Source: Elsinoe ampelina
Taxonomy: Eukaryota
NCBI GenBank assembly: GCA_010093995.1
Contig: ML992507.1
Location: 1,419,637 to 1,439,636 of the forward strand
Length of the DNA: 20,000 nt
Direction: 5' to 3'
A model generated the notes under the pieces. The model was given only the letters and a program-made list of their open reading frames with translations. It was not told where the DNA came from and made no database searches. The translations under genes were made by a program, and so were the position numbers. Positions 1 to 20,000 of the stretch are shown one piece after another (within the stretch, counting starts at the first letter, position 1; every line of letters starts with the position of its first letter).

Positions 1-669
1 ATGTATCGAGGGAAGTGGTGCGAATCTATCCAAGGTCTCACACGAATGTATTTGTCGCCTAGGATGGTGAATCCAAATAGGATGTGAGAGTCCAGTCCGC
101 CCGCTGGCATGTGATCGTTGTTGTCGTGGAGTTCACTTTGGATCAAGATCGCCATCACATGAAATCCCCGTTGGTCTGATGGTCACGGGTCATACAGAAG
201 CACTACAAGACCAATTGCACTCACATCGCCTTGAGAAAATGTCAGAGCTACGCATGTCACCTCCAGCAATTAGTTAATTGCCCCCCAAAAAAGTGCCCGC
301 GCCGTGCAAGCAAATCTTGCGCATGAAGGCAGATGCCTCGATTGTACCGTAGTGTAGCAAACACGCAAGAAGCTGAAATCGATCATAACGCTCTTTCGAA
401 TGGACATCTTGGCATCAGACGAAAGACGAATGTGAATGCTAGGTGAGACGCGAGATCGATGAGGAAGGGGGTATATGTTGCGGTCACGCATGACTAAGCG
501 CGCCAAAGTTTAGATTGGTCCAAGTCACATCACGGTACTGGCGAAAGGATTCTCAAGAAGTGTGTAGTCTGTCATTCACCTTCCCTTCTCTTTCCACGTC
601 ATTGAGAAGAAGGGTTTCCTCTCTGGAAGCCGTGCTCAATGAGCCCTCTACCCCAACGTCCAAGTTACC

Positions 670-2037
670 ATGGCTCGTGACGAGGCCTATGCCCCCTCAG
701 ACGACGAAAACGACTCCGACCACGACCTCCACATCTCCCGCAAAGGCGGCCGTGCCAAAGCGCGCGCGACACAAGCATGGGAAGCCTCTGCTCACCGGAA
801 CTGGGATCTGCAAGAGGATGCATCCGGCTCATTGACCTCGACTCTCACCAACCTCGAAGAAGCAGCTAAGCGGAAGCGATTACTCAAAGACACAACTCCG
901 CTCCAGCGCGGTATCATCCGACATGTCCTGCTCGTGCTGGACCTCAGCACGGCGATGCTAGAGAAGGATTTGCGTCCGAGCCGATTCTTACTTACCATTC
1001 AGTATGTGGTGCAGTTCATCGGCGAGTTCTTCGAGCAGAACCCTATCTCGCAGCTCGGGATACTTGGCATGAGAGATGGTGTGGCGGTGAGGATATCGGA
1101 AGTCGGCGGCAACCCGGTGGAGCACATCAATGCTGTTCGAGGATTGAGGAACAACTACGAGCCAAAGGGCAATCCATCGCTGCAGAATGCTCTGGAAATG
1201 GCAAGAGCAGGGCTCTATCACGCACCTAGTCATGGAACGAGAGAGGTGGTTATCATTCTGGGAGCTTTGCTGAGTAGCGACCCCGGCGACATCTACGATA
1301 CGATCAAGAAGTGTGTCAAGGATGGTATAAGAGTCGGGATAATTGGGTTAGCGGCGAGGATGCACATTTGCACGGAAATAGTCGGCAGGACGAATGGAGG
1401 AGACGAGTCCGGCTACAGTGTTGCAGTCGATGAGGTACAATATAGAGAGCTGCTGATGGGCATCACCACACCGCCAGTGGTCAGGGCTACAGACAAGAGG
1501 AGAGAGAAGAAGGCAGGCTTGCTGATGATGGGCTTCCCAAGCAGAGTCATGGAAGAAACACCAACTCTATGCGCCTGTCATGGACGACTGGAGAGGGGTG
1601 GCTACGAATGCAGTCGATGCAGAGCGAAGGTGTGCGGACTGCCAGCGACATGTCCTGGCTGCGATCTTACTCTCATCCTGAGTACGCACTTGGCAAGGAG
1701 CTACCATCATTTGTTCCCATTGATGAATTGGGTGGAGGTCACTTGGGAAAGAGCAAGAGAAAAGGGGAGCAGAGAATGCTATGGGTGCATGAGCGGATTT
1801 CCACCAGTACCTGGACAGAATGGAGAGGTCAATGGTGAAAGGAGGAGAGATGTCACGAAAAGGGCAACTGCGGAGGGGGCGAGTGAGAGCAGTAGGTATG
1901 AGTGCACCGTGTGCGAGAGGCACTTCTGCATCGACTGCGACGTCTTCTGTCATGAGGTCGTTCACAACTGCCCTGGATGCCAGAGCAACACCATTCTACC
2001 TGGACAGCAAGCGGATGAGGCTATGAATGGGGATTGA
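670..2037 (+). CDS. SSL1: TFIIH core subunit Ssl1/p44 (GTF2H2 orthologue), 455 aa, single exon
   Basis: Recognisable Ssl1 motifs: DTTPLQRGIIRH..LDLS.AM.EKDLRP, FFEQNPISQLG, PSLQNALEMAR, HGTREV, LLSSDPGDI (vWA domain); LCACH..GYECSRCRAKVC.LPATCP.C.LTLILSTHLARSYHHLFPL (C4 finger); C-terminal CYGC...YECTVCERHFCIDCDVFCHEVVHNCPGC. Confidence 0.97.
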   Translation: MARDEAYAPSDDENDSDHDLHISRKGGRAKARATQAWEASAHRNWDLQEDASGSLTSTLTNLEEAAKRKRLLKDTTPLQRGIIRHVLLVLDLSTAMLEKDLRPSRFLLTIQYVVQFIGEFFEQNPISQLGILGMRDGVAVRISEVGGNPVEHINAVRGLRNNYEPKGNPSLQNALEMARAGLYHAPSHGTREVVIILGALLSSDPGDIYDTIKKCVKDGIRVGIIGLAARMHICTEIVGRTNGGDESGYSVAVDEVQYRELLMGITTPPVVRATDKRREKKAGLLMMGFPSRVMEETPTLCACHGRLERGGYECSRCRAKVCGLPATCPGCDLTLILSTHLARSYHHLFPLMNWVEVTWERAREKGSRECYGCMSGFPPVPGQNGEVNGERRRDVTKRATAEGASESSRYECTVCERHFCIDCDVFCHEVVHNCPGCQSNTILPGQQADEAMNGD

Positions 2038-2962
2038 GGCTAGATGATCCAGGGCCATGCCGAACAGCACTTCACAACGCATTTGCTGGACAGCTGTGTG
2101 AAGCGAGAGAGTGCTACTTGGTAGGTATGTATGACTACACGAATGATGGTGCTTCACATCATTCCTCCGCAAGAGCGGCAGTAGCTTGGTGAGATACCAT
2201 GGCCGACATGCTCGGCTGTCTTTACTTTGTAGTGCTATCTGCATTCCTCGGGAGCGTGCCGAACCGAACAGCAGTCAGAATGGCAGGCTATCAAATACCG
2301 ACGACACAATGCATGATAAAGGGTCGACGAAGCGCTCGACGAACTAGTCAAACAAAGCATCCACTGGATCCAGGTTGCTATACCAGCACAGCTTCGGACC
2401 TTGTGAGGTCTCACACCTTCGTCATTGGTGCATCGGATACCACCACTTGCATCATGCCGAGATTGAGAGAACTTTACAGCTAGCTACCTGGCAAGCAAAC
2501 ACAATCACTTTGCCTCCCAAGCCGGCATGGCCGTTTCGACGTGCGGCCAGACCATTTAGAGTTTGACCCTGTCTGCTCTAGCGCGCATCCGCACCCCACA
2601 CGCCGCACACGGTCAGGCCGCTTGGACCGAGCTTTTGCAGGAAATTTGCGAGAGGCAGCTGGTGCGCGCGACGACAATTTCGCCCACTTTACATTCTCGC
2701 TAGGTACACTCTTCCCTCACCTTCTCTTCAACTCGTCGACCTGTCTTGAAACTCGTCGATATCGTCAGAACGACTACTTCATCACTCCTATCACTTCACA
2801 AGGTTCGTCAATTCCAACGGCCCGCTGCCTGTCAGCTGAAACTTCACACCAAAATCTCTCGCCTTTCAGTCGCACAACCGCCGCCGCCTCTCTTACTTGA
2901 TCCAAACCTGACCTTTACACAGTCTTCAATCTCTCAACCATCAACTCACCACCCCATACAAT

Positions 2963-3711
2963 ATGCAAGACTACGGAGCTCCTCAGGCCCAGGGCGGTCG
3001 TGCCTGCTACAACTGTGTAAGTCAACTACCCCGCTCCCCGCTTGTCTGGCGTTGTCAGACCTGCCGCCGAAAATTTCAGCTTTGCGCCTCCAGCACAATT
3101 CCTCCACACTCAACACTGTTCAACTATACTAACACGCGTCTGTAGGGAGAGACGTCGCATCAAGCACGTGATTGTCCCTCGAAGGGGACGCCGTCGTGTT
3201 ACAATTGTGGACAGGCAGGGCATATATCCCGAGAGTGCCAATCAGCTCCAAAGGAAAAGTCGTGCTATTCGTGCGGTGAGACCGGCCACATCTCTCGCGA
3301 GTGCCCCAAGGGCGGCGCTCCCGGAGGAGGATTCGGCGGCCCAGGAGCTGGAGCTGGCATGGAATGCTACAAGTGCGGCAAGGTCGGACACATTGCCAGG
3401 AACTGCCGCAGCAACGGCGGTGGCTTCGGTGGCGCCCCCGGTGGTGGCTACGGCCAGGGAGGTTTCGGTGGAGGTCGCCAGCAGACCTGCTACACCTGCG
3501 GCGGGTTCGGACACATGTCCCGTGACTGCACTCAGGGACAGAAGTGCTACAACTGTAAGATCTACCATTCCGTCTTGAAGGATATCACTAACAATTCGCA
3601 GGCGGAGAGATTGGCCATTTGAGCCGTGACTGCCCTTCTGAAGCCAGCCAGGAGCGCGTCTGCTACAAGTGCAAGCAGCCAGGTCACGTCCAGGCAGCCT
3701 GCCCCAACTAG
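2963..3711 (+). CDS. GIS2: CNBP/Gis2/Byr3-type zinc-knuckle nucleic-acid-binding protein, join(2963..3016,3146..3554,3602..3711), 190 aa, 7 CCHC knuckles
   Basis: Intron 1 is 3017-3145 (GTAAGT...TACTAAC...TAG) and intron 2 is 3555-3601 (GTAAGA...CACTAAC...CAG). The spliced frame gives seven CX2CX4HX4C knuckles ([98 protein letters not shown]) with Gly-rich linkers; stop TAG ends at 3711. Confidence 0.95.
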
Positions 3712-4957
3712 ACACACCACACCGACCGCGCTTAGGCGCACAACAGATTCTTCAGACCTGCATCACGGCACACCCAGCATCGGCAAGGACACCCCAATAT
3801 CGCTTCGGTTCGCGGCGGCAGACAGATGTATGATGAGGATGAGGAATGAACCTTAGGGAACCCCGGCGTTTTATCAGTTGACCGTTTACAACAAACCCGG
3901 GCTGCGACTCGATCTTTGGGGGTACTGGATGCTTGGGATGGACGATGCTCAACCTTGCTTTGACAGGGCAGGCGGCCGAGACGACGACGACGATCAAAAG
4001 TGTTTAGTCGAGGTTTTCTTTCCGGTCTGAGCGGACGGACAAGACCCTCTCCATGCTCCCCGAGGCAGAACTTCGTGCCTGGGACTTTTCGGAGTATGAT
4101 CTATTGTGATTGGTGACCTGCGTACGTAGCTGCCATCTAGAGAATGTGATGTTTGCAGCCCAACAACCTTTGTCCGCACCCGCGCTTGACATTTTTTTCA
4201 TTGATGATGTGCGTTTCTGACTACGTATCTCGTCGACAACATGCTTAGGAAATGGCATGGCTGAAGTCGTCGACCATGGGGAGAGACAGTGTTGCGTTCA
4301 GTCACGTGCAGACATGGATCATATCGCACTAAGCCTCTTTCAATGGAAAATGGCCACGATGGCCGTTTTTTGACCAAACAGGTTAGCGCGACTGCAGGTC
4401 ACCTTTTGAGAACATGTCATCTGGGCTCTCACCTACTACCTTACAGCATCCATTGCATCATTTTACAGCCGAAACGCCTTCGACTCGTTGTGCGTACCCC
4501 TGCTTTCACGTGTCGAGAAGACACGTCTATTCACACCACTTGTCAGGGATCTAGGATCCAGAGACTCTCTCGTACTCAAAGAGCTTTATGCGGGAACATC
4601 TCGTGCTCCAGCGAGGGGTGATGGAGCTCCATCAGATCTGTGGAGGGACTTGTTGGAGCTAGTCAGTATGGGGCCAGGAAGTGCTTCCATGCCAAAAGAT
4701 CTGACCTGAAAGGCACTGACCTGGTAGGAGCCGGTCTGGTAGGTATTGATCAGGATACAGATCATGTCCGCCCCGCAAGCAAGTCTTCCCACTTTTGCTC
4801 TTTCGACAGCCGTTCACATGTTTAGCTTGTCGATCATCTACCTCCTCACTGCTTCACCTCACCGCTGCGAATTTAGATCCAACTTCAAGTTCAAGCTCAC
4901 CTTCAACTTCAGCAGGCAGCCGTGGCATGTGCATCTACTGTAGCATGTGCTCGAAGG

Positions 4958-5214
4958 GATATATAAGACCACCTTCGCCCCCTCTAAAACCTTTCCTTCT
5001 TCCTACCACTCCACCCTTCCACTCCCTCGCCCCCTTTCCCCCCCTTTCTCACACCACCTCTCTTCTCTCCTACCACACACACTTACCTTTACAAGACCAC
5101 CCATCAGCAACATCACTCGCCACTCCAATACTGCCAACGACACAGATCGTGGCCCGAATCTTCAATTAAGCATCTCAGAACACATCAGGCAGGTCCTCCG
5201 AACTTATCACGATC
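4958..5214 (+). promoter_or_regulatory. Putative core promoter/5' UTR of the GTPase gene (TATA-like GATATATAAG followed by a long CT-rich tract)
   Basis: GGATATATAAG at ~4958-4968, then a pyrimidine-rich stretch (~4975-5110) typical of filamentous-fungal transcription start regions, upstream of ATG 5215. Confidence 0.45.
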
Positions 5215-8200
5215 ATGACGGACACGGCTGATCCTTCAGCTAAGGACAGTCTTTTCGTCCCACCCCATGATATCCGTGGTCCATCCATGATGCCATCTGG
5301 TGGGACTGATGTTAGCTCTGCTAGGACTGGAACGCCTCCCACGAGCTCTGCCTCTGAGACTGCTGCTGAGCCTGGCGCAGCTCCTACCAGCCCTCTCGCC
5401 ACCTCTTTCAAAAGACCTGCAGATGAGCCACCAGAAGACGAGCCTGACTCCAAGTCCGCACGCCGAACCATTCCCGGCAAAGTCAACTATCTCGGCGATG
5501 AGCTTGAAGAATACGACCCAGCTGAAGCGTTCTGTTTCGAGCTTCACGAAGGACTACCAATGGTTGCGTCGAGCCTGCCAGAATGCCGCCGAGCCGAGAT
5601 CCTGTCGGCAAAGGGACTACGCCTGGTACTTGATGAGCTCGAAAAACTACCAGAGCAAGGCAAAGAGATAGCTCGTCTCGTGCAGCAAATGAAGATTTGC
5701 TTGAACACCAAGCTGAGCAAGAAGTTTGTGGTAGTACTTGTCGGCGATACGGGAGCAGGGAAGTCCACGTTCCTCAACAAGCTACTTGGTCTTCGCAAGC
5801 AGCTTGCTTCCCAAGGTGCAAACGGCAAAGCTCAAACTCAAGTGGTGACAGAATACCATTTCGACGAGAGATACTCGAAGGAGAATGCGACCAAGCTGTC
5901 GCAACGCTCCATAATTCATCTCAAGTCAAAGGACCGGGTCGATGAGGAGATCGAGGCCCACCTTGAAACCTACTTGACCTTCCACAACACCGCCTTCAGG
6001 AACTTGCGTGGAGTCCAGAGGAAGAAGGAAGACATTGCTGAGGCTGAGACTGCAGAAGAGTTTCTCCTGACCGTTTTCGCTAAGCAGACTGGAGGCAACT
6101 TCAAGAATGCCGACAAACTTCGAGCGTACGCGAGGAAATTGAAAGCAAGAGAATACAACAAGACTCTCAAGGCTTTGCAGGACTATTGCGAAGGGCTACT
6201 ACGACCACACTTTGCGACAAAAGGCGATCCAGCGACCCGCGAGATACGAATCGACGAAGCGACTGTGTCAAAGCACAATCGGGCGGCTGCGGTCTACACG
6301 GAGCGCCCAATGTCTGGCCAGACTGGTCTCTGGCCGCTTGTGGAAAGGGTTCAGACTTTCGTTCCCTGCCCGCTTCTTGCCAAAGGCCTAGTCGTTGCCG
6401 ATGCACCTGGCTTAAGCGATAGTAATGCCATGAGACGGAACGCTTCCGAAAAGTACATCAGAGACGCCAACATGGTCTTCATCTTCGCACCCATCAAACG
6501 TATCGTCGATCACCCCATGATTCGCAAGTACCTCCGCAGCTGTCTCGTATCCAAATCCATCGAGGATGTGGTAGTTGTGCCGACCCAGATCGATGACATG
6601 GGTCAGCCTGGTGAGAGGGACTCGGAGGGAGAGGGACTGGATGATTACACACAGATGATTGCAGAATACGACGAGGCATACGAAGCTGCCGACGAAGCTT
6701 TCAGAAGAGCGTCGAAACGCACCGAGAACACCGAGACCAGGGTATCACTCAAAAAGACTCGAGAGAGAGCTCTGACGACTCTGCAACGCGCTCGCATCTT
6801 GATGCGCAACCAAGCAGTCACTCAGAATCTGCAGGGACTCTTGCCTGCCGAGTATGCCAAAGATAAGCTGTTGGTCATGCCTGTCTCCAGTTCCCAGCAC
6901 CAGCTCTACGTTGACGGCCTCGCCGGAGACGATACTCTACTCAAGATGGGACCTGACGGGCATGGAGAAGACGGAGTTGCGGCCATTCGCTCACTCATGT
7001 TTATGCGGGCCCAAGATGGTTTGATGCAGAGGCTCTTGGACTATGTGTTCAACGACATTGAGGTCCCACTGGGTCGCATGAAGCTGGTGCTGGAGAAGAA
7101 TCCGGACGATCGCAGAGAAAGTCTGTTCAAGGCGGTGGAGGAGGCTATTGAGAATGGCAAAGAATGTGTGACCGGGTATCACAAGAAAATTCAGGCAGCT
7201 GCAGAGCAGAAAGTTCTGAAAGCGATGACCAAGACCAACAAGCACTGGGTCAAACAATTCGACGAGCTGATCCAGGGGTGGTACGACATCGCATACGCAC
7301 ATCAGACATTCAAAGCGATTGCGAGAAGACATGGGCGCCACTACATCAAGAAGCAGGATGCAACGACCGATTGGACTGGCGATGTCATAGGAGTCGTCAC
7401 GCCGTCCATCCAACTGATGATTCGCGACTTCAAACAAGACTGCGAACGCATTCAAGTCAGCCTTCTTGAGTCCTTCAACGGTACGATGGACGGCGTGCGA
7501 GATACTACAAGGACCGACGCCAACGTGGGCGGGATCGACATGACGACCATCTTCAAGCTACTCGAGACGCACAAGAAGCACTTCGAGCACTCCGTTCCCG
7601 CAGCTTTCGCCGCTCTCGCTGACAGCGTCATAAAACTCGGTGCCGGAATCCTACCAGAACCGCACGAGATCCTACCAAATGCCAAATCCAAATCCAAGAC
7701 CAAAAAACTTCGTCTCGCTCGAGGCCAGGGCCGTGACTTCTACAAGAGCATGGTCGCCCTGTACGATGGCCTCGTCAGCGACCAACTTTTCGGGCCTGGC
7801 ACGAAGAAAGTGACCGCGAAGCGCTGGGCCCATCTCCGCAAGCAGCTCTGCAACACCCAATCAGGAAAGCCCATGAGCTCCCTCAGAGCCGACTTCCGCT
7901 TCCGCCTCACCCAAACCATCACCGGGTTTGCCGAACACCTCATGGTGGACATCATGGGATCGCCCTTCAGGGAGATAAGTGCGGATTTCGAAGCCAGGTT
8001 TGGCCGCTACGAAGACTTCCAGGATCAAGCTACCCGCGACAGTATCAAGACTGCGCTTGAGAAGGTACTACCACAGGCCAGACAGATGTTCGATGAAGCG
8101 CAGAGGTGCCTGAACTGTGCGGTCGAGTGGGAGAAGGAACATGGTGGGTTGGTGGCGAAGCCGGTGGCCAAGCAGGTCAAGTTGAAGGCCGAGGACTTTC

Positions 8201-8304
8201 TGGACGACATGGTGAGCGACGTTGAGGAAGAGGATGAAGATGACGACGAGGACGGGGGTGAGACAGAGGATTCGGACTCTGACCTCGAAAGCGAGGCGGA
8301 TTGA
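5215..8304 (+). CDS. Large dynamin-superfamily P-loop GTPase (Dynamin_N; SLIP-GC/NUGGC-like fungal family), 1029 aa, single exon
   Basis: G1 VVVLVGDTGAGKSTFLNKLLG, G2-like AQTQVVTEY, G3 GLVVADAPGLSD preceded by GLWPLVERV, G4-like VVPTQIDD; long helical C-terminal half; low-complexity N-terminus and acidic C-terminal tail; 3-kb uninterrupted ORF. Confidence 0.88.
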   Translation: MTDTADPSAKDSLFVPPHDIRGPSMMPSGGTDVSSARTGTPPTSSASETAAEPGAAPTSPLATSFKRPADEPPEDEPDSKSARRTIPGKVNYLGDELEEYDPAEAFCFELHEGLPMVASSLPECRRAEILSAKGLRLVLDELEKLPEQGKEIARLVQQMKICLNTKLSKKFVVVLVGDTGAGKSTFLNKLLGLRKQLASQGANGKAQTQVVTEYHFDERYSKENATKLSQRSIIHLKSKDRVDEEIEAHLETYLTFHNTAFRNLRGVQRKKEDIAEAETAEEFLLTVFAKQTGGNFKNADKLRAYARKLKAREYNKTLKALQDYCEGLLRPHFATKGDPATREIRIDEATVSKHNRAAAVYTERPMSGQTGLWPLVERVQTFVPCPLLAKGLVVADAPGLSDSNAMRRNASEKYIRDANMVFIFAPIKRIVDHPMIRKYLRSCLVSKSIEDVVVVPTQIDDMGQPGERDSEGEGLDDYTQMIAEYDEAYEAADEAFRRASKRTENTETRVSLKKTRERALTTLQRARILMRNQAVTQNLQGLLPAEYAKDKLLVMPVSSSQHQLYVDGLAGDDTLLKMGPDGHGEDGVAAIRSLMFMRAQDGLMQRLLDYVFNDIEVPLGRMKLVLEKNPDDRRESLFKAVEEAIENGKECVTGYHKKIQAAAEQKVLKAMTKTNKHWVKQFDELIQGWYDIAYAHQTFKAIARRHGRHYIKKQDATTDWTGDVIGVVTPSIQLMIRDFKQDCERIQVSLLESFNGTMDGVRDTTRTDANVGGIDMTTIFKLLETHKKHFEHSVPAAFAALADSVIKLGAGILPEPHEILPNAKSKSKTKKLRLARGQGRDFYKSMVALYDGLVSDQLFGPGTKKVTAKRWAHLRKQLCNTQSGKPMSSLRADFRFRLTQTITGFAEHLMVDIMGSPFREISADFEARFGRYEDFQDQATRDSIKTALEKVLPQARQMFDEAQRCLNCAVEWEKEHGGLVAKPVAKQVKLKAEDFLDDMVSDVEEEDEDDDEDGGETEDSDSDLESEAD

Positions 8305-8362
8305 TGGGGTAGTGGTAGGATTGACGACACCGAGAGGTCGGTTGGAGTTTCGAGAGACTGTC

Positions 8363-8418
8363 GATGGGTTTCTGGGAGGACGTTGATGAGTTTCTGGGAG
8401 GACGTTGATGAGGTTCTG
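8363..8418. repeat. 22-bp tandem repeat, ~2.5 copies (GATGAGTTTCTGGGAGGACGTT), in the 3' UTR region of the GTPase gene
   Basis: Units start at 8363, 8385 and 8407. Confidence 0.85.
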
Positions 8419-8814
8419 CCCGGGAATTTCAGAGATGCTGGTGGGACGCTGGAGAGCTTCTCGTAGGACAATGCAATGCGGAGGCTCTCAGAGACAAGGA
8501 TGGGATCGAGCGAGACGAGACTGAGGATCTAATCACAGATTATCACATTTATCATCTAGATAGTCCGATCCATTGACCAAAGCAATCCAGTCCCAGAAGC
8601 GTCCATACCATTTCGTGCTCCGAGTTCCAGCTGCCTCGCAGCCCCTTGCTTGCCATCCATCATCGACCCGTGCCTGACTATGAATTGGGTATGCTCTTTG
8701 CCTTCCTGGTGTGCATGGAAATTGTGAGCTTGAAAGATCGGCGTCCGCCTTCCACTTGCGGTCCGACATCCGTTTCAGGTCTAGCGCCATCACTTGCGGC
8801 TCCTCGGACTCCTC

Positions 8815-8956
8815 TGTTGTAACTGGCAAATCGGATCGAGAGACGTGTATTTCATTCAGAGAGTTACAATAACCGATTTATCTACTGTGCGTGCGCTGAC
8901 TTATTAGTGCCAGTTCTTTAGTATTAGAGAAGCTATACTAGCCTTCTATTATAACA
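8815..8956 (-). repeat. Copia 3' LTR, 142 bp
   Basis: Bounded by inverted termini TGTTGTAA (8815) and TTATAACA (8956; one RIP-type mismatch). Directly adjacent to CTCCCTCTC (8957-8965), which is the polypurine tract GAGAGGGAG on the minus strand. The partner LTR is not in the window. Confidence 0.75.
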
Positions 8957-9324
8957 CTCCCTCTCTAGTATAGATTATTAAAGCTAGAGAACTATTCTGT
9001 TATATGTAAGTAAAGTAATTAGCTTATTACTTTATCTCTTTATAATTGCTTATGATTATTAGTGCTAGCTAATCACTAGTAAGAATTTACTATTAGATTA
9101 GCTTATAACAGCTAGTAACAATAGTAACTATTAATAATAGCTAGGTAGCTATTGTCTCTATTGTTCTATGTGAATAGATTAGCTTATAAATCTTAACAAG
9201 GGAGATATAAGTATCTAGCTAACTTCTTTATAGTTTCTCTTTCCTTTATTATACTTATAATAAAAGCCTACTATTTTACATTTCACTTTTACACCTTCTA
9301 TAGTATAAACTAACTCCTTATAGC

Positions 9325-10515
9325 ATAAGTGCTACTACTTAGCTAGGCATTAGTAGTATTACTACTAGTACTAGAGTACTAGGTAGTTCGCTAGGTAGTA
9401 GAGGTAGAGAATGTAATCTTTCTTAGTCTAGAGATTTAACTAGTTCTAAGACAAAAGAGTAGAGTACTATAAGGGCTATTACTAGACTAAATACTCTTAG
9501 TATATTATTCCTTATATAGTCTAAAAAGTAGTACTAACTTATTATAGTTAGGACTAAATAGGCTCTTACTTAGGAGCTTACTATAAGCATCTAGAACAAC
9601 CTTACTAGGCTTAGGGACCTTAGATACTACAACTATAACTTGCTATACTTAGTCTTTAGGTCCTCTACTATTTAGGCTTTTAGTGCTAGTAACCTAGATC
9701 TTTTAGTCTTAGCCCCTATCTAGGTAAAGAACCTAACTAAGATAATTAACTTAACTAGTTCTCTAACTTATATAGCTACCTTAATAGGAACTAGTACTAC
9801 TAGAAGAGTTATTTACTATAGTACTAACTACTACACTAAGTATTAGAGCTCTACTCTAAGTAATAATAATAGCCTTAGTAAAGCTAGTAAGTTCAAGTAG
9901 TATATTATAGTCTCTAGCTAGTTCTATAGTGCCTATACTAACTATGCCTATAGTCTATAGTATAAGACTTGCTCTCTTATCTAGTATACTTTAACTCTAA
10001 GGCCTCTAAAGGAAACTCTAAGTAGTTTAAGGCCTATTACCTAACCTGTTCTATATAGCCTAATATACCTACTAACTAAGCTTCTAAGGTCTTTCTCTTT
10101 TAGTAGTACTTTGCCTTAAAGGTTCTTACTAAGGCCTACTTCTTCTCGTAGTAGGCCTACTAACATTATTAATAAGTCCTTAGTCTATCCTAACTTACGC
10201 TACTTTATTATAGTCCCTATAGACTTTGCTAATCTAGCAAATCCTATATAAGCTAAGCTCTAGGCCCTATAGGTTATTATAGCTAGGTTTGCTATAAACA
10301 TAGCTAAGGTTATATCTAGTAAGAGGGCTAGCCTTCTAATTATTTACACCTTTACTATATAAGGTTTAGCTAGTAGTATAGGTTATATAAGGAATATATC
10401 TAGTTCTTCCCTAAGAAATAAAAGGTTAAGGGCTAACTCTAATATATTAATAGGTAGTAGATCTCGTGCTAGCTCTAAGAGCTTTAAGAGGATAAGAACT
10501 CCTCTAAGAAAGTAA
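9325..10515 (+). pseudogene. RIP-mutated DUF3716-like Cys-rich gene inside the copia element, antisense to pol (~396 codons)
   Basis: One frame with no frameshifts; internal stops are TAG/TAA, as expected from RIP of CAG/TGG/CAA. De-RIPed 9832-9978 reads C-T-K-C...G-K-F-x-Q-C-V-V-V-S-G-Q-F-x-G-A-C-A-N-C-A-Y-S-L-Q-Y-K-T-C-S-L, matching my recollection of the DUF3716 signature. The start is inferred from ATA at 9325. Confidence 0.75.
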
Positions 10516-10764
10516 TTAGTAGAGTGTAATAAGTAGTTAGTAGTATAGGATAGTAGTTAGTATTAAGTAGTAGATATAGCTTAGGTATAAGTAGCTAGTA
10601 ATAAGGTTATAATAGCTTTTTCTTTCTCTCTTTTTAATGTTAAAGTAACTTACTTTAAGTTTTTAGACAAATAAGATAGCTTAATAAGTAGTAGTAGTAT
10701 AAATAATATACTTAAAATAATAATACATATAAAATCTAAATAAGTATATAGTATAGATATACAC

Positions 10765-12656
10765 TAAGTAATTAGCCTTTGCTAATTAATTAAGGATCTT
10801 ATTAGGAGACTTAGGCTTTATAAGTGCATTAGCTAATTACTAAGTTATATTAATATACTTAAGCTTAATTACTCTAAGTTCGTGCTACTCTTTATAGTAA
10901 TAATTCTTTAGATTAATATACTTAGATCTCCTTAAGTTAGTATAATTTCTTATAAGTTTAATAGCTAATTTATTATTAATAAAGACTATAGTTAGACTAA
11001 GGTAGATATTAGTAAGTAGTCTAAGTTTAATAATAAGGTTTCTTAACTAATTAATCTCTCTATAGGTCTTAGTAAGGGTAAGGTATTTAGCCTTAGTNNN
11101 NNNNNNNNNNNNNNNNNNNNNNNNNNNNNNNNNNNNNNNNNNNNNNNNNNNNNNNNNNNNNNNNNNNNNNNNNNNNNNNNNNNNNNNNNNNNNNNNNNNN
11201 NNNNNNNNNNNNNNNNNNNNNNNNNNNNNNNNNNNNNNNNNNNNNNNNNNNNNNNNNNNNNNNNNNNNNNNNNNNNNNNNNNNNNNNNNNNNNNNNNNNN
11301 NNNNNNNNNNNNNNNNNNNNNNCCTTTAAGCTTCTCCTTTAAGTAGTGTAATTACTTAATCTTAATTATGTCCTTAGTTCTATAAAGTTAAATACTAAGG
11401 AAGAGGTTTAAGTTTATAATCTTTATTAGAAACTTAAGATAAAGATCTTTAACTAGCTTATCTATATACTTCTACCTAGTAGTAATAATTCTAAAGTTAT
11501 TAATATATATAAGAACTATATAGTACTTATTAATAAAGAGATAAGCATTACTATAAAATTTATTAAAACTAAGTAATAGAAGTGCCTTAACTATAGCGTT
11601 ATACTAGAGGGTAGTAGCTTACTTAAGCCTATATAAGCCCTTTATAAGAACAATAAGCTTATTCTATTTACTAGGAATTAGTACGCCTTCTAGGTAAGAG
11701 ATATAGTTCTTAATATTAATATCTAGTCTAAGGAATATAGTAACTACATTAGCTATTATAATAACCTAGTTATAATAAAGAGTATATATAAGAATTACTC
11801 TTCTAGTTTTAGCTCTTAGTATTAGTATAAAGGTTCTAACAAAGTTAATGCCTACTCTTTAAGTAAAGCTCCTTATAGTTTAATAAGCCTTATATCTTTT
11901 AACTTTACTATTAGTAAGCCTCTTAGTCTTAAAGATCTATTTACCTATTATTAGCCTAACACTTCTTAGTGCCTATGATTTCTTAATAATTAAAAAGGTT
12001 TTAGAGTTAGTTAGAGCCTTCTACTCTGCCTCTATTATAGCTTACTAGTAATAACCTTTAGAAGAGGATAGTATATCTCTTACTATTTGTAGGTCTAGCT
12101 TAAAATTGACAGCTATAGATCTAATAATCTTACTATTATTAAGCTTCTTATAATTAATCTAGCGATGTATTTTAAGAGACCTTCTAATAGTTTCTTATAG
12201 TAAGAGAGATCTCTTTCTTTTACTAGTTAGAGGTTATATATTAAATAGTATAATAAGGAAGTTAATATCTTTATTCTATATATATATTAGTAGTTAATTA
12301 ATATTAACTATAGGATTAAAGGTTAAATATAGTTTACTAATAACTTTAGGTAGTAGTATTATAAGGTCTTCGCTCTTATAATTAGTAATAACAAGTTACT
12401 TCTCCTATTTATTAATAGGTTAAGGATCTAGTTTAGGATGTTAGTATTGCTCTCTCTATTCTTTAATAGGGGTAGATAATTGTTATTTATATCTAGGGAT
12501 TAAAGGGTAGTTAGATATTAGTTGTTTAGCTTAAGGTTATTTAGCCTAAGTAGTTTATAGATTCTTATAACTAAAGGGTAGTTAATTATAGCTATAGTCT
12601 TAATTATAATTACTACTAAATATCTACTCCCTCTAAAGCTATAAAGCCTTAGGTTA
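10765..12656 (-). pseudogene. pol: Copia pol relic: reverse transcriptase and RNase H
   Basis: De-RIPed motifs: WIFKTK (~11935), YKAR..F.Q..GIDF, DVVTAFL, LVKGLYGLKQA..LWY (~11600-11650), VLVYVDDF (~11495-11515), FVDNKSAI, RSKHIDLK, QLADALTKP (~10795-10825). Boundaries are approximate. Confidence 0.9.
11098..11322. other. Assembly gap (225 N)
   Basis: Run of N between the copia RT and RNase H segments. Confidence 1.
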
Positions 12657-12661
12657 TTATA

Positions 12662-12892
12662 TATTAGAGGTAGATTATATTAATACTAGTAAGTATATAT
12701 AATAATTAACTTATAGTAGTATAAGGATAGCTCTTAATTAGTAGTGCGAATAATACTTAAGGAAACTATCTTCCTCCGCTAGTGCGTAGTAAGATTAGAG
12801 CCTATATATATAGGCTATCTAAAGCTAGCTAGACCCTAGATCCTTACACCTAATTAGAAGCTTATACCTTATCCCTAAAGATCTCTATAATA
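12662..12892 (-). repeat. Gypsy 3' LTR, 231 bp
   Basis: Ungapped match to 19418-19648 with ~13 differences by eye, all transitions. Termini TATT...AATA are RIPed TGTT...AACA. Followed on + by TTACCTCCTTCTCT, the complement of the PPT AGAGAAGGAGGTAA. Confidence 0.96.
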
Positions 12893-13264
12893 TTACCTCC
12901 TTCTCTAAGCTAATGTCCTTAGCAGCTAGCCTCGATAAAAACCTATTAGCCTTTATAACTATTATAGGAAAAGAGTGTCTAGCATTGCTACTTTATCTAC
13001 TTATGTCTCTTATATAATTTTTGCATAGTCCGTATATAATTAGTAAGGTTATTGTAGCTTTATTGCTTCTAGAAAGGTAAGTAATATGCGCTTTATTTAG
13101 GCTTTATTTAGGATTTTTGCCTCCTAGGCCCTTAGTACTAGAACTGCCTTTGTTACGTAGGACAATAATAATAAATATAGCTAGAATATATTTCTACGAC
13201 GCGCCTATACTTCTTAACTTCCTTAATAATACTTATTACACATACTACACCTTCTTTGCCTATT

Positions 13265-14260
13265 ATAGTTGCCTTTAGTAGACTAATATACATTAGCTCT
13301 ACTACTCTTAGTTGTGCCTATAACTATGCTTTTCGCCGCCGAGTTACCTACGATATAACTACGCTCTATATGCCGACTTATATATACTACGTATATAAGA
13401 TTATAAAGTATAGTATAGTTTATAGTAGGCTAGACCTTAAGAGGTGTAACTACTATACTAGAGGTAATAGATCTTCCTACACTCTAGTAGGGACTTTACT
13501 AAGTAATACTCTCCTATAACATTACTAATACACTTAGGTACCTATTACGTTTAATAGTTACGTCGAGCGCGTATACTAGTTCTACAATACCTATATCTAG
13601 GCTATTAATACTAGTACCTTTCCTAGGAATAGGAGAAGCTAAGACTCTACTATCTAGCGTATAGGCTTAGCTCTTACGCGCGCCTAGCGTACCCTTACCT
13701 AGTAGCTTAAGCATTATAGGTATATTATAGCTCTTAGAGGAAATCCCTTAGAAATACTAACTAAGGTGCCTAAGTCTAGCTCTAATATAGAGAGGCTATA
13801 GCTGTTAGAGTAGAGGAGAATTACTAATGTCCTAAAATAGATAGCTGTTTAGTAGTTTAGCTATGTAAGTTTATACCCTACTTGCTTCTAGTTTATATAC
13901 TAATAGCTAGGATAGCCTAGTCCTCTTAGGTTTAGTAGTAGTGCTCCTAGTGGTAGGCCTTACCTACACTTTAGGCCTAGTAGTAGTCCTAGAGGTAGTA
14001 GTAGTAGTAGAGGTAGAGGTAATAGAGGTAGAGATAGAGGTAATAGTAGCGGGAGTAGTAGCGTAAGTTTATACCTACCTATTACCTACATCGTATACTA
14101 ATATCGTAGCTAGGGTAGTAGAGGTAGTAATAATAGTAATAGGGATAGAGATAGCCCTAATAGAGATAGAGAGGATAGGGAGAATAGAGATAATAAGGAT
14201 ATTAAGGAGTTTAGTAGTTTAAGTAATAAGAATACTAATAACTAGATAGACGTAGTATAA
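13265..14260 (+). pseudogene. RIP-mutated four-exon antisense accessory gene of the gypsy element: Zn2Cys6-like Cys motif, helical middle, Gly-rich/acidic tail (~280 aa); join(13265..13486,13538..13864,13916..14062,14114..14260)
   Basis: Three GT...AG introns of 51 nt with CTAAT branch-like motifs (13487-13537, 13865-13915, 14063-14113), all phase 0, give one continuous frame whose internal stops are all TAG/TAA. The start (ATA for ATG), stop and two of the acceptor sites are inferred. Confidence 0.72.
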
Positions 14261-14589
14261 TCGCTATTATATATTATGTTAATCACTTACTAATAGTATA
14301 GCTAGGATAAAGAGGATAACTTAGATATTGTTATTAATAAGAATAAGAATAATAAGTAGTTATTACGCTTATTGCTTATAGGTTAGCTATATAAAGCATA
14401 TATAGCATAGGTGTTTTTAGTATTATTCTTACGAAGATACTAGGCTAAAGAGCTATAGATAGAAATAGACAGTCTTAATCCTTAAGCTAATGTTCCTATT
14501 AAAGTTATAAAGCTAAAGTCTCTAGTGCTAAGTATCTTATTATAAGTATATAATAGTATTACTACGAGTTATCTACTATCTACTACTAA

Positions 14590-17500
14590 GTTACTTATTC
14601 TTCTCTTAACCCTAGCTATACTTACTACTTTCTCTAAACTCCCTTAATAAGTTATCTATCTCCTTAAAGTCCTCTTCCTTTATCTATAAGCTTTTAGTCT
14701 TATTATACCTTTCCTACTTAAGTAGATATTTCTTCTTCCCTACGTATATAGTATGCTCCGTAAGAATCTTCTCTATATACTAAACTTATTCTCTATCTTT
14801 TACTAGCTCTAGGGCCCTTATGTTTAGTAATTCTTCTCCTTCCCTAGGGTAAAAGAGCTCTAGAAGAGACACATAAAACACATCGTATATGCGATAAGAG
14901 CTTAGTAGCTATAGGCGATATACCTAAGAGTTAATTACTTCCTTAACATAAAATAGGCCTACGAATTTGTCTATTAGCTTCTTACTTAGGGCTTTAAGCT
15001 TAAGGTTCTTTATGTTTAGCTACACTAAGTCCTTTAGCTTAAACTTTATTAGGGTATACTTCTTGTTATAGTACCGGGTTTAATACTTAGCTACGGCCTT
15101 TAAGCGCTCTTAAAGATTTACTTATAGTACGTATATGTTTTACACTTGTCGTATAGCTACTAGTATCTCCCCCTCTAGCTGCCTATCCTTAGGCGAGTTA
15201 TAGAGGATTAGGTACTTTCCTAGGACAATAAAGAACAGAGTTTTCTTTGTTGCTATATATATTAAGTTATTATATACAAATTCGGCTATATAAAGCAAAT
15301 TCGGCTAGTCTTTAGAATGCTCTCTTATAAATACCTAAAGGTAGTGTTCGAGTGTCTAATTCTAGTATTCTATTTACTTATCGGTTTATAGATAGAAAGC
15401 TATACTTAACCTACGCTTTACCTATAGTTAATAGCAAATTTTAGTCTAGAACTAGCTTATAAAGAGAGATCCTCTATCTAACATAATTCCTTTCTATACA
15501 CTATATTTGCAAATTATATGCTTAAAGTAGACATCTATAAAGTCCTTTATAGTCTATATCTCCTTAGCTACAATATAGATTACTAGCTTTAATAATCTAT
15601 TATAGATTACTAAGATTACATTATATGTGCTACTATTATACATTATAGAGGGGAGCTTTATAATAAAGTCTAGTATAACTTCTTTAAAGATATTAGAAGG
15701 AATAGGTAGAGATAATAGCTTACTATATAGTATATGCCTTAGTACTTTTAACCTTTAGCACGTGCTATATGTCTTAATATACTTATACACTTCCTAATCT
15801 AATAATAGCTAGTAGTAGTATCTACTAATTAGATTATGCATTCTTATAGCGCTATAGTAGCTAGCTATATAAGAGTTATAATGTTAATATAAGATTTCTT
15901 GTCTTAGACTTAGTTTATTAGGAACATAGAGCCTGCCCTTATATATAAGAGTTCTATCTTTACGTTTATACTATGCTAGTAACTTCTTACTACTTTAGGT
16001 ACGCTCTTCCTACTCTAGATCGGCTATGCGCTTTAAAGCAAAAGCGTTCCTCTACTAAAGTATATAGATAGTCTATAATATTAAAGTATCCTCTACTAAT
16101 ATAAGTTCGCTAGTAATAAGTACTCTCGCTAGATAGCGTAGTATATATAGTATATATTCTATAGCACTAGTAGTTAGGCTAGATCTACGTTTATAGGTTA
16201 TAGGCTATTAACCTACAACCTCTAAGCTATGCTTAGGGGTAGAGCTAATTCCACTAACAAGTTACACCCTTGTAGTAACTAGATCTAATCCTAGTTTACT
16301 TACTAAGTTTAGCTTATGTTATAAGGTAGAGAGTAATCTTATAAGTGCGTAGTTCTCCTTAAAGTAGTCTACTCTTCTTAAGGGCCTATTAGCTAGATTT
16401 AACTTGCTAGGGCAGTGCTAGACTTCGAAGTTAAAGGCTTCTAGGTAGGACGCCTATTACGCCTAGCACGGGTTAAGCTTACTTATATCGCGTATGTCTT
16501 GTAGGTTATTATAGTCACTTAGAACTTGTATAGTATACTAAGTGCCCTTAAGGTAGTAACGCTACTACTTAAAGCAATAGATAATTACGTATAGTTCTTA
16601 GTTATATACCTCCTAGATACGCTCTACTCTCTAAAGCTTCTTAGAGATAAAGGCGACTAGGTGCCATTTCTCGTCTTTATATAGCTAGGAGAGAATACCT
16701 GCTACTATAAAGGTCGATATATCTATCTCTAGGCATATTAGTAGCTAGGGGTCGAAATGTTATAGTAAAGGCGCTTCTATAAAGCATACTTTAAGCTAAA
16801 CAAAGCTAGCTTCTATAGCTTCTAGCTATATAAAGGTAAATTGCTCCTTCTTTAAAAGATCTATTATAGGGGCTATTAGTTTTATATAATTCTAAATAAA
16901 TCTATAATAGAAGTTAGCAAAGCTAAGGAATAACTAAAGCTCCTTAACGCTAGTTAGTCGAGGCTATCTAGAGATAGTTACTACTTGCGTAGGATTAGCG
17001 TAGACACCTCGCATGTCTATAATAAACCCTAAGAAGAACATCTACTTTATAGTAAAGGTATACTTAGACAGGTTTACGAACAGTTTAGCCTGTCTTAACT
17101 GTTTAAGAATAGCGCTTACTACTCGCTAGTAGGTATCTAGATCTTTACTATAAGTGTAGATAAGAATATTATCTAGGTATACTATATATAGATAGTCTAC
17201 TAATCCTCTAAGAGTCTAGTTAATATAGGCCTAGAAGGTAGTAGGCGCGTTAGTAAGCCTAAAAGGCATAACTAGGTATTTAAAATAGCTATAACGTGTT
17301 CTAAAGGCAGTCTTCTACTTATCTCCTAGGCTAATATAGATTCTGTTATAAGCATCCTTTAGATCTAGAGTTATATAGTAATATACGCCTAATAGGTAGT
17401 CTAGCGTCTTACTAATTAAGGAGAGTAAGTAGTAATCCTTTATAGTAACAGAGTTAAGGCCTCTATAGTTAATATATAAACGAAGAGTGCTATTCTTCTT

Positions 17501-18322
17501 TAGCATAAATAGGATAGGTGCCTCTACTAGGCTTATACTATAACGAATTTAGCCCTTCTTAAGTGTATCTTCGAGGTATAATTATAGCACCTTAAGCTCT
17601 TATAAAGAGAGGTTATAGAGCAGGCTATAAGGTAGCTCCTTGCCTAGTAGAATAGGAATTTAATAATTCTCTTCTTTAGTAGTAGGTAGGATTTTAGTAG
17701 CATTAGTATTAAAGACGTCCCGGTAGTCTAATAATACGTCTAGCACTTAATTTTCCTAGGAGACACTAGCAATTTAGACATAGGTAATAACTTCCTTACC
17801 TTAAGAGTTACTATAAACCACGCCTAAGAAGTGTATATAGCTCTCCTCTTATTCTAGCTACTAGATTGTTACTATCTAGATACGTAACTTGTCTTTAATG
17901 CTCTAAGCCTAAGTCTACTATCTATAGTCTAGCTATATAGCTTCTCTTTATAAGAAGGAGTTACCTAAGAGTAGCTCTAGCCCTTCTTTGTCTACTCTAT
18001 AAGTAATAGTTTTAACCTAGTATATTACGCCTCGGTTGTTAGTAAGTACTACCTATATCTTATATATAGTATATATAGCTTTCCTCTCTAACTCTACCTA
18101 GGCTAGTTAAGGTAGGTTACTTAGTACTAAGTTAAGGTTTATCTTAATTGCTATATGCTAGCTAATAAGGCTAACCTCTACTTAAGAATCTAGAATAACT
18201 CCTACCTTATAGTTAACCCTAGTTGCTTCTATTATAATGTAGATATAATATATCCCTAGTAAAATATTAATAGCTCTATGCCTTATAGTTCCGGAGGTAA
18301 CTACGAGGCTCGGCCTTTTCCC
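14590..18322 (-). pseudogene. pol: Gypsy pol relic: protease, RT, RNase H, integrase, chromodomain
   Basis: De-RIPed motifs: ILDS (protease, ~18190), KK.GTLRLCVDYRGLN, LDLKDAYN, KTAFRT, MPFGLTNAPATFQ, VYLDDILI (~17165-17182), LETDAS..AGILSQ, WHPVAF.SKK, integrase CxxC (~15760), LDFI, SDRGSLF (~15470), PQTDGQTERQN (~15370), GPF (~14955), chromodomain VEKIL...KYLLKWEGY...SW (~14685-14785). The 3' end is approximate. Confidence 0.95.
18280..18322 (-). promoter_or_regulatory. Putative -1 programmed ribosomal frameshift signal between gag and pol
   Basis: Slippery heptamer G GGA AAA in the gag frame (18322-18316), a 6-nt spacer, then an 11-bp stem-loop (18309-18280). The RT frame is -1 relative to gag. 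Confidence 0.75.
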
Positions 18323-19377
18323 TAGACCTATCTTACGCGAGTAATAGGCTCCTTATTAGTGTCTAAGAGTTAGGCTTTCTTCCTACACTCGTTTACGTAG
18401 TAGCCTATCTTCTTATAGAAGTAGCATTTAACTCCCGACTTGTAGGAGGAGTCTTTCTTAGAGGCTAACCTCTCTTTATATTAATCCTCGCATTATAGCT
18501 TTTAGCTATATCTAGCTAAGTAATTGCGATAGTTCTATAGCTTGCCTATGCCCTATAGGTTATACTCTAGCGTAGATCCTAGAATAATAAGACCTTCTCT
18601 TATTAGAGGTATAGTATAGTAGTTTATAATTGCTTACTAAAGTTCAGAGCGGAGTTTTAAGAATAGGTACTATATATAGTACTCCTCTAAGTAGGGGGGT
18701 AGCTAGTTCTTAATTGTTTCTAAATAGGTAGCGAAGGCCCTAATACTCTATCTAGGAAGTTATAGCGTAGTAGTATACGTAGTAGTTGCTTCTAGGGTAC
18801 AATTAATAGAATTAGAGAGTATGTCTAGTAGAAAGGTCTTAAATTAGCTCTAGGTATACGATTTTATAAGTAGCTTATACTTTATATAAGAGTACTATAC
18901 TTCGTATAGGTCCTCTATAAGATACTAGCTTACCTAAGTAACCTTCTCTTGTTCTAACTAGAAGTTCTCTAGAGTAAGCTAGAAGGCTATCTTATAGCTC
19001 TAAGTAAATTCCTTATGTTTCCTTAGGTGTTTCTCTTTATATTCCCTAGGATCCTTTAGCCTTATACTACGCTTCGTACGTAAAGATTCTATATCTTAAG
19101 AGGTATAGCGCTTATAACTTTCAGCTGCTAATCTTATTTCTACATCGCTTTAGATCTTAATACTATCTAGATTTACTTCTCTCTTAAGGAGAGCAATTTG
19201 TTCCTTAATCTATTAGAGAGTCTATTCCTATAGGAGATAATCCCTTCGCTATTCTACGTTATAGATATGCTTCTCGAGCGAGGTAGTTACTACTAGCAGT
19301 TCTCCCGGAGTAGTTATAGAGGTTCCTATACTCTCCTTATTACTAATAGAGCCTAACTACGTCCTTGTAATAGCTAT
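18301..19377 (-). pseudogene. gag: Gypsy gag relic with C-terminal CCHC zinc knuckle
   Basis: De-RIPed C-Y-F-C-K-K-x-G-H-Y-x-N-E-C at ~18383-18427; the frame ends QGKGRAS-stop at 18301. The start is inferred from ATA at 19377, just inside the 5' LTR boundary region. Confidence 0.85.
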
Positions 19378-19417
19378 CCTTAGACTACTTTCTAAGTAAG
19401 GCAAGGAAGTATTATTA

Positions 19418-19648
19418 TATTAGGGGTAGATTATATTAATACTAGTAAGTATATATAATAATTAACTTATAGTAGTATAAGGATAGCTCTCGATTAGTAG
19501 TGCGAATAATACTTAAGGAAACTATCTTCCTCCGCTAGTGTATAGTAAGATTAGAGCCTATACGCATAGGCTATCTAAAGCTAGCTAGACTCTAGATCCT
19601 TATACCTAATTAGAAGCTTACACCTTATCCCTAAAGATCCCTATAACA
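19418..19648 (-). repeat. Gypsy 5' LTR, 231 bp
   Basis: Direct repeat of 12662-12892; begins TGTT on the minus strand (AACA ending at 19648); flanked by TSD TTATA. Confidence 0.96.
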
Positions 19649-19653
19649 TTATA

Positions 19654-20000
19654 CCTATAGAATATATAGCTATTTAATAACTTATATTACCTAGTCTTTA
19701 TAGACTATATTCTTATTAAATGTTATATAGAGTAATATAATAATCTTTCCCTTCTAGGCTTACTAAGTATAATACTAATAGAGTATCTAGATAAGGTAAT
19801 TAGTTGTTAAGTTGTTCTATATACTAATATACTAACTAAGTAGTACTCTAGCTTAGAATTTGTATAATTTAGAAACATATTAGTTATAGATATAGGCTCT
19901 ATAGCTAAAGCGTCTAATATAAGTTAATAAGACTAGCCTATTATTATTAAGAAGATTCTTTCTTAGCTCTTATATAGGGATCTTCTTAGTTTTAGTATAG
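19654..20000 (-). pseudogene. pol: Copia integrase C-terminal (SH3-like) relic, upstream continuation of the interrupted pol
   Basis: De-RIPed reading HIRRFGCRAYIH...KFQARALLG.YVG...NYLIW...HVTFDEN is typical of the region following the copia integrase core. Confidence 0.85.

Follow-up and report, generated by a model that had tools for sequence, protein, structure and literature searches.

Extra open reading frames (ORFs) that run antisense to their element and lie between pol and the 3' LTR have been described in the plant gypsy elements Grande, RIRE2, Retand and PvRetro13 and in the fungal element Boty. According to the sections of two papers that deal with them, their products have no database relatives and are suspected of a regulatory role in the nucleus (PMC7264820; PMC8365987). 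The plant frames are grouped as aORF-3R, with gene23 of maize Grande, rice RIRE2, Silene Retand and Phaseolus PvRetro13 as examples (PMC7264820). The fungal case, from Botrytis cinerea, is brtn, a gene of Boty-like Ty3/gypsy elements (Zhao et al. 2011, as cited in PMC8365987 and PMC7264820). Gene transduction, for which maize Bs1 is the example, also places a foreign coding piece in the internal region of an element, in few copies, and as sketched in PMC7264820 it usually concerns sense gene fragments. Furthermore, the part of PMC8232023 devoted to REP9, an IS3EU-type DNA transposon of Zymoseptoria tritici, reports two DUF3716 genes that ride in this element. In a search of the main texts of the literature, neither a copia element of a fungus with an extra antisense ORF nor a report of a DUF3716 gene (as DUF3716 or PF12511) in a retrotransposon was found.

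The window analysed here, a stretch of 20,000 nucleotides of Elsinoe ampelina DNA, contains a locus that can be compared with these systems. In our preferred reading, to which we give a probability of about 0.45, a dead copia element on the minus strand carries a module of about 1.3 kb that amounts to one former gene of about 397 codons, most likely antisense, between pol and the polypurine tract (PPT). The ORF (9325-10515) lies between the pol end (10681-10762) and the PPT (8957-8966), as in the aORF-3R class, and a degraded new case of the known antisense extra-ORF class is a plausible description of the locus. With the plant frames, as they are outlined in PMC7264820, it would share the position between pol and the PPT/LTR, the antisense orientation, the lack of homologues, a suspected nuclear role involving nucleic acids and the need for an own or antisense promoter. 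However, the plant frames belong to gypsy elements and occur in all or most copies, whereas here the element is a fungal copia and the frame seems to be confined to a minority of copies (PMC7264820). The Boty-like element is likewise a fungal LTR element with an antisense extra gene, a likeness drawn from published descriptions, but it is Ty3/gypsy and the element of the window is Ty1/copia (PMC8365987; PMC7264820); in addition, the copy in the window is destroyed by RIP and its module is seemingly absent from most copies. With Bs1 the locus would have in common a foreign coding piece inside few copies of an element, but in place of the usual sense fragments there is a whole ORF-sized unit, seemingly in antisense (PMC7264820).

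The locus borders on host DNA. Bases 1-8800 have a normal composition (GC 0.47-0.60) and contain ordinary fungal genes. Among these are the gene of an Ssl1/TFIIH subunit (670-2037); that of a zf-CCHC protein with at least five CCHC zinc knuckles (~3200-4000), which is split over two frames and is therefore probably encoded by a host gene with an intron; and a host gene of 1029 codons for a dynamin-family GTPase with DUF7605 (5215-8304). The RIPed repeat block starts about 500 bp past the last of these genes. From ~8957 to 20000 the DNA is strongly RIP-like, with GC of 0.14-0.38 against 0.47-0.60 upstream, TpA/ApT of 1.7-2.3 against 0.53 in genes, and (CpA+TpG)/(ApC+GpT) of 0.17-0.28 against 1.31 in genes. 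This signature marks the host as a filamentous ascomycete. TGA is found 0-1 times in every frame of all RIPed parts of the window. RIP causes transitions only and so preserves the original order of purines and pyrimidines, and it converts TGY (Cys) into TAY (Tyr).

The module sits in a Ty1/copia element that lies on the minus strand and is heavily mutated by RIP. In a Pfam scan of all six translated frames, with X at stops, its reverse transcriptase was recognized at ~11325-11960 on the minus strand (RVT_2, PF07727, E=8.4e-14). A run of 225 N (11098-11322) lies within the reverse transcriptase-RNase H region; past it the pol frame resumes shifted by one, and the real gap length may differ. The C-terminal part of Pol, the RNase H end, occupies 10681-11097 on the same strand, with stops at 4.5% of codons. 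Its translated frame contains ANALIK at 10816-10833, in which RIP has changed D to N and T to I relative to ADxxTK, the motif that marks the end of copia RNase H in the pertinent section of Donnart et al. (PMC5445492). The conserved tail reaches ~10762 and the next in-frame TAA is 10681-10683, in agreement with the initial annotation, made from the sequence alone, which had placed the RNase H end at ~10765. For this tail no Pfam model matched, and a word-indexed search against longer proteins gave nothing. Membership of the GalEa clade was considered and rejected: the reverse transcriptase motif is YVDD-like (RIP-altered) and not QTDD (PMC5445492, from its description of the clade).

Downstream of pol, the copia 3' untranslated region is divided by the module. 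Its pol-proximal part (10558-10680, minus strand) follows the in-frame TAA, and the summed depth of contigs from the same organism jumps at ~10556 to at least 59,000. Its LTR-proximal part (8967-9259, minus strand) has 11-14% stops in all six frames and no codon signal. The polypurine tract, read from the sequence as AGAGAGGGAG, occupies 8957-8966 on the minus strand directly upstream of the 3' LTR, a repeat of 142 bp with the ends TGTT...AACA (8815-8956, minus strand) that was delimited by sequence and contig ends. Logan contigs of two organisms (run X1 for the organism of the window; runs X4 and X5 for the other) match up to exactly 8815 and 8956 and are unrelated beyond, and since they break exactly at both ends, 8815-8956 is taken as a true LTR. 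One contig of 498 nt from the second organism contains all 142 bp with 12 differences, and in this organism (runs X4 and X5) the LTR adjoins different internal or flanking sequence. The LTR is far less RIP-mutated than the interior of the element, with TpA/ApT of 1.42 and a CpA+TpG index of 0.83. A second copy of it was not present within 8500-20000, the 5' end of the element being situated past base 20000, and a degenerate RIP-tolerant LTR pattern had 0 matches in metagenome contigs and viral contigs. Adjoining the LTR, TCCTC (8810-8814) is a candidate half of a 5-bp target-site duplication, judged by its letters; its partner would lie beyond the window. The minus-strand copia element proposed in the initial annotation, with this LTR and polypurine tract, is thus borne out by the RVT_2 match, the sequence and the contig ends, and the extra span of about 1.8 kb that it had noticed between RNase H and the PPT/LTR measures ~1.7-1.8 kb from the pol end to the polypurine tract.

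The copia element is interrupted by a complete-looking Ty3/gypsy element of 6992 bp on the minus strand (12660-19651). Its LTRs (12660-12895 and 19416-19651) are 236 bp long and 94% alike, and all 13 differences between them are transitions. Pfam matches to RVT_1, RT_RNaseH_2, RT_RNaseH, Integrase_H2C2 and SH3_Tf2-1 lie in one frame, and a polypurine tract abuts 12896. The five bases that flank the LTR pair on either side (TATTA and TACCT) differ, so a clean target duplication is not seen. With LTRs of 142 and 236 bp, and by their lengths, the copia and gypsy elements do not fit the repeat families published for Leptosphaeria maculans.

Within the extra span of the copia element, the + frame at 9325-10515 is a RIP-destroyed ORF relic of 397 codons. 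It contains 23 stops (5.8%), 17 TAG and 6 TAA with the last one included and no TGA, which leaves 22 internal stops; no ATG is left, and the ATA at 9325 may once have been one. Its stop count is the lowest of the six frames. Known RIPed pol or coding frames in the window have 4.5-7.1% stops. In the adjacent non-coding stretch 8957-9324, stops make up 11-14% of each of the six frames, and no frame is preferred. Of the earlier description of a + frame of ~396 codons interrupted only by TAG and TAA, the frame itself stands; the type of stop is uninformative, with TGA at 0-1 everywhere in RIPed DNA, and the TAG:TAA ratio does not separate frames. The stop count was compared with simulations from second-order Markov chains, in which each run was represented by the best of its six frames: 23 or fewer stops were reached in 0 of 3000 runs when the chain was trained on the candidate and in 1 of 3000 when it was trained on all RIPed DNA. 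A dicodon model in purine/pyrimidine terms, which is invariant to transitions, was trained on two host genes and two pol genes. This model chose the true frame in four of five cross-tests, missing the RNase H tail of 110 codons, and gave the + frame +46 to +54 bits; 53 bits were reached by 0 of 2000 Markov sequences. The coding signal on the + strand sets in at ~9230-9320 and persists beyond 10515, but it dips at 9859-10248, a stretch in which the best score belongs to another minus frame. A usage model over 64 codons, for which the RIPed pol genes were the training set, was dropped, as it gave contradictory answers and failed its own cross-validation.

From the low stop count relative to the Markov nulls and from the purine/pyrimidine codon signal, a former coding sequence at 9325-10515 is well supported. 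The encoded protein itself is a purely statistical prediction, with no homologue in any frame. In the + reading it would have a Ser/Thr-rich N-terminal half, a central Tyr-rich stretch of ~60 residues and a basic tail. The basic C-terminus seen in the initial annotation holds up: 13 of the last 50 residues are K or R, and 9 of them stay basic under strict RIP reversal. The TATA-like motif that had been noted at ~9205 is present (GATATAAG at ~9204), but it is unremarkable in DNA of 29% GC and is not part of the segment of low depth, which begins near 9260.

The same frame had been assigned to the Cys-rich fungal domain DUF3716, on the basis of a core in which Tyr codons were restored to Cys. 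This core is a Tyr/Cys-dense stretch of residues 161-222 (9805-9990, + strand) with 13 Tyr or Cys codons. Pfam gave no match to PF12511 for the + frame, whether stops were written as X (E up to 1) or as Q (E up to 10), the sole entry with Q being an unrelated BRCT model (E=7.3), and across all six frames of the candidate it returned noise alone (E=0.11-7.3). Word-indexed protein searches with the whole + frame and with the core (residues 150-235, E up to 10) gave nothing, nor did a full HMMER search of the + frame against 1.84 billion protein cluster representatives, and a degenerate RIP-tolerant pattern of the core had 0 matches in metagenome contigs. Missing matches are expected even for a true member of the family, because RIP turns Cys codons into Tyr. 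The identity is nevertheless tentative, and the motif appears solely after Tyr-to-Cys reversal. Every residue restored in the Cys motif can be reached by reversing CpA-to-TpA or TpG-to-TpA changes, but each Tyr codon could equally revert to His, Arg or Tyr. The lone surviving TGC (9970-9972) reads TAC in 7 of the 7 other contigs that cover place 9971, and stretches of 59 residues with at least 13 Tyr, Cys or His make up ~4% of windows over all frames of RIPed DNA.

A pattern search was also made with a putative Cys signature of DUF3716, drawn in part from the text of the initial annotation. Over sets of RIP-reachable residues, this pattern, which was set post hoc, occurs once in 11 kb times six frames, at the candidate; the full post-hoc pattern was found in 0 of 200 simulations, and its core averages 0.04 per simulation. 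Judged from the letters, the central Tyr codons may derive from Cys or His codons and possibly formed a zinc-binding domain, for which the DUF3716 label would serve as a lead only. A protein of the DUF3716 type would probably bind DNA. It is doubtful that a fungal Ty1/copia lineage acquired a complete Cys-rich gene of this type, carried it in antisense and copied it by retrotransposition. If the label were true, the likeness to REP9 would be that of a mobile element with a DUF3716 gene as a non-enzymatic passenger; REP9, however, is a class II element with real Pfam matches to DUF3716, as described in the relevant part of PMC8232023, and the frame in the window has none.

How widely the module is shared was approached with contigs of run X1, from the same organism, which were aligned to 8300-11097 at 80% likeness or more and their word depth summed. 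The unique flank has a summed depth of 150 and the LTR (8815-8956) one of 117,000-171,000. The values are 66,000-107,000 at 8958-9145, 11,500-15,200 at 9146-9427, 1,900-5,100 at 9428-10555 and 52,000-103,000 at 10556-11097. Summed depth across 9146-10555 is thus ~4-50 times lower than in the flanks (mostly 15-50-fold), although contig depth is not the same as copy number. Within the low stretch, 9992-10179 forms a bump of 23,000-27,000, a depth 5-10 times that of the rest of the module. This bump overlaps the dip in the + coding signal where another minus frame is best, and in one contig 76 different letters stand in place of 10032-10098; the bump may represent a small repeat of its own or a sub-module that is shared. 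In a contig from the same organism, 10558 follows immediately on 9259, with 1298 bases left out and 0 letters common to both sides; this contig marks out a low-depth module of ~1.3 kb (9260-10557, + strand), inside which the ORF at 9325-10515 sits with 65 and 42 nt to spare.

Given the low summed depth and the skipping contig, the module seems to be absent from most copia copies, and either a small subfamily seems to carry it or the majority lineage seems to have lost it by deletion. Such low depth argues against an integral and conserved component of the family, and the proposal that the product was a retrotransposon accessory protein is weakened by a depth ~4-50 times below both copia flanks together with the skipping contig. 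The module itself is multi-copy, since other contigs match parts of it at 85-87% identity (two records), and its summed depth is ~13-35 times that of the single-copy flank. Of the 145 kinds of change listed in run X1, 128 are transitions. Among the contigs listed, which are few of 2161, none bridges an end of the module in another copy, so other module copies may sit outside copia.

Several explanations other than our preferred one were weighed. That there was never a gene, and that a long non-coding 3' region of copia merely acquired low stop numbers and periodicity by accidents of composition, is very improbable. Its proponents could point to the empty protein searches, to the frequency of Tyr-dense windows in RIPed DNA and to fungal copia elements of 5.4-7.0 kb that are described with a single large ORF in the part of PMC5445492 dealing with one clade. 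From such elements, long non-coding copia tails may be common, although the copia element of the window is not of that clade. Against these points, the observed values were reached by 0 of 2000 and by 0-1 of 3000 null sequences, and the non-coding neighbour 8957-9324 shows no preference for any frame. A gene on the other strand is also improbable, though less so. Here the minus frame that continues pol would extend Pol at its C-terminus or form a third sense ORF, env-like in position, with the + frame as its antisense shadow. The + frame indeed shares its codon register exactly with the copia pol frame on the opposite strand, and one periodic pattern runs from RNase H through the whole module, but a shared register has a chance of one in three. 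The in-register minus frame of 9325-10515 scores +29 to +42 bits, near the + frame, and the antisense frames of true genes here are also stop-poor (6.6-10.8%). However, this minus frame has 39 stops in 397 codons (9.8%) against 23 on the + strand, more than any of the three RIPed coding frames known here (4.5-7.1%); the protein that it requires would consist of ~10% Gln plus Trp, and the frame has no Pfam match. In each of the 3 known genes, stops are fewer in the sense frame than in the in-register antisense frame. The purine/pyrimidine model favours the + strand with every training set, by 6-20 bits, a small margin next to the 25-158 bits of the four control genes. Another minus frame, with 28 stops, was rejected at -9 to -27 bits in this model. 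The + strand, antisense to gag-pol, is thus the better reading by roughly 3 to 1, with moderate strength. The antisense gene proposed between RNase H and the 3' LTR is confirmed in its position, and its strand is favoured by the stop counts and the 6-20 bits with that small margin.

If there was a gene, it could still have entered the element from outside without ever serving it. An independent nested insertion or capture, by which a piece of another repeat or a host gene came to lie in one copia copy or a small lineage, is unlikely, though less so than a gene on the other strand. One form of it would be a fragment of a DUF3716-carrying DNA transposon similar to Zymoseptoria REP9, and DUF3716 genes are documented in this class II element (PMC8232023, in its account of REP9). 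The drop in depth below both copia flanks and the contig that joins 9259 to 10558 fit an insertion, as do two contigs that match from 9202 on and are preceded by unlike sequence of normal GC. Against an insertion, no terminal repeats, inverted or direct, and no target duplication were found at the two junctions (9259/9260 and 10557/10558), also when the sequence was reduced to purines and pyrimidines, and no letters are shared at the joint. Termini or a target duplication of its own had been named in the initial annotation as the sign of an independent insertion. Furthermore, no other part of the window is similar to the module, and a module present in multiple copies, at ~13-35 times the depth of the flank, is most easily explained by copying along with copia.

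In the preferred reading, with an antisense gene carried by the copia element, transcription of an intact copy of the gene would have started at a promoter of its own or at an antisense one located in the element's 3' end, and the product may have been a nuclear accessory or regulatory factor that bound nucleic acids. Alternatively, antisense RNA of the module gene may have damped the element. The copy in the window, with 22 internal stops and no ATG, is predicted to make nothing.

As a relic destroyed by RIP, the locus is of value as a pointer to intact copies in related fungi and is otherwise of modest interest. The antisense extra genes found in the literature belong to Ty3/gypsy elements, in plants and in Boty, and the function of these known genes of LTR retrotransposons is not understood; a copia case, from a fungus of the filamentous kind, would extend the class. 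If the DUF3716 label were true, a common fungal domain of unknown function would be tied to mobile elements of both classes, and its repeated recruitment by unrelated mobile elements would give a first handle on its function.
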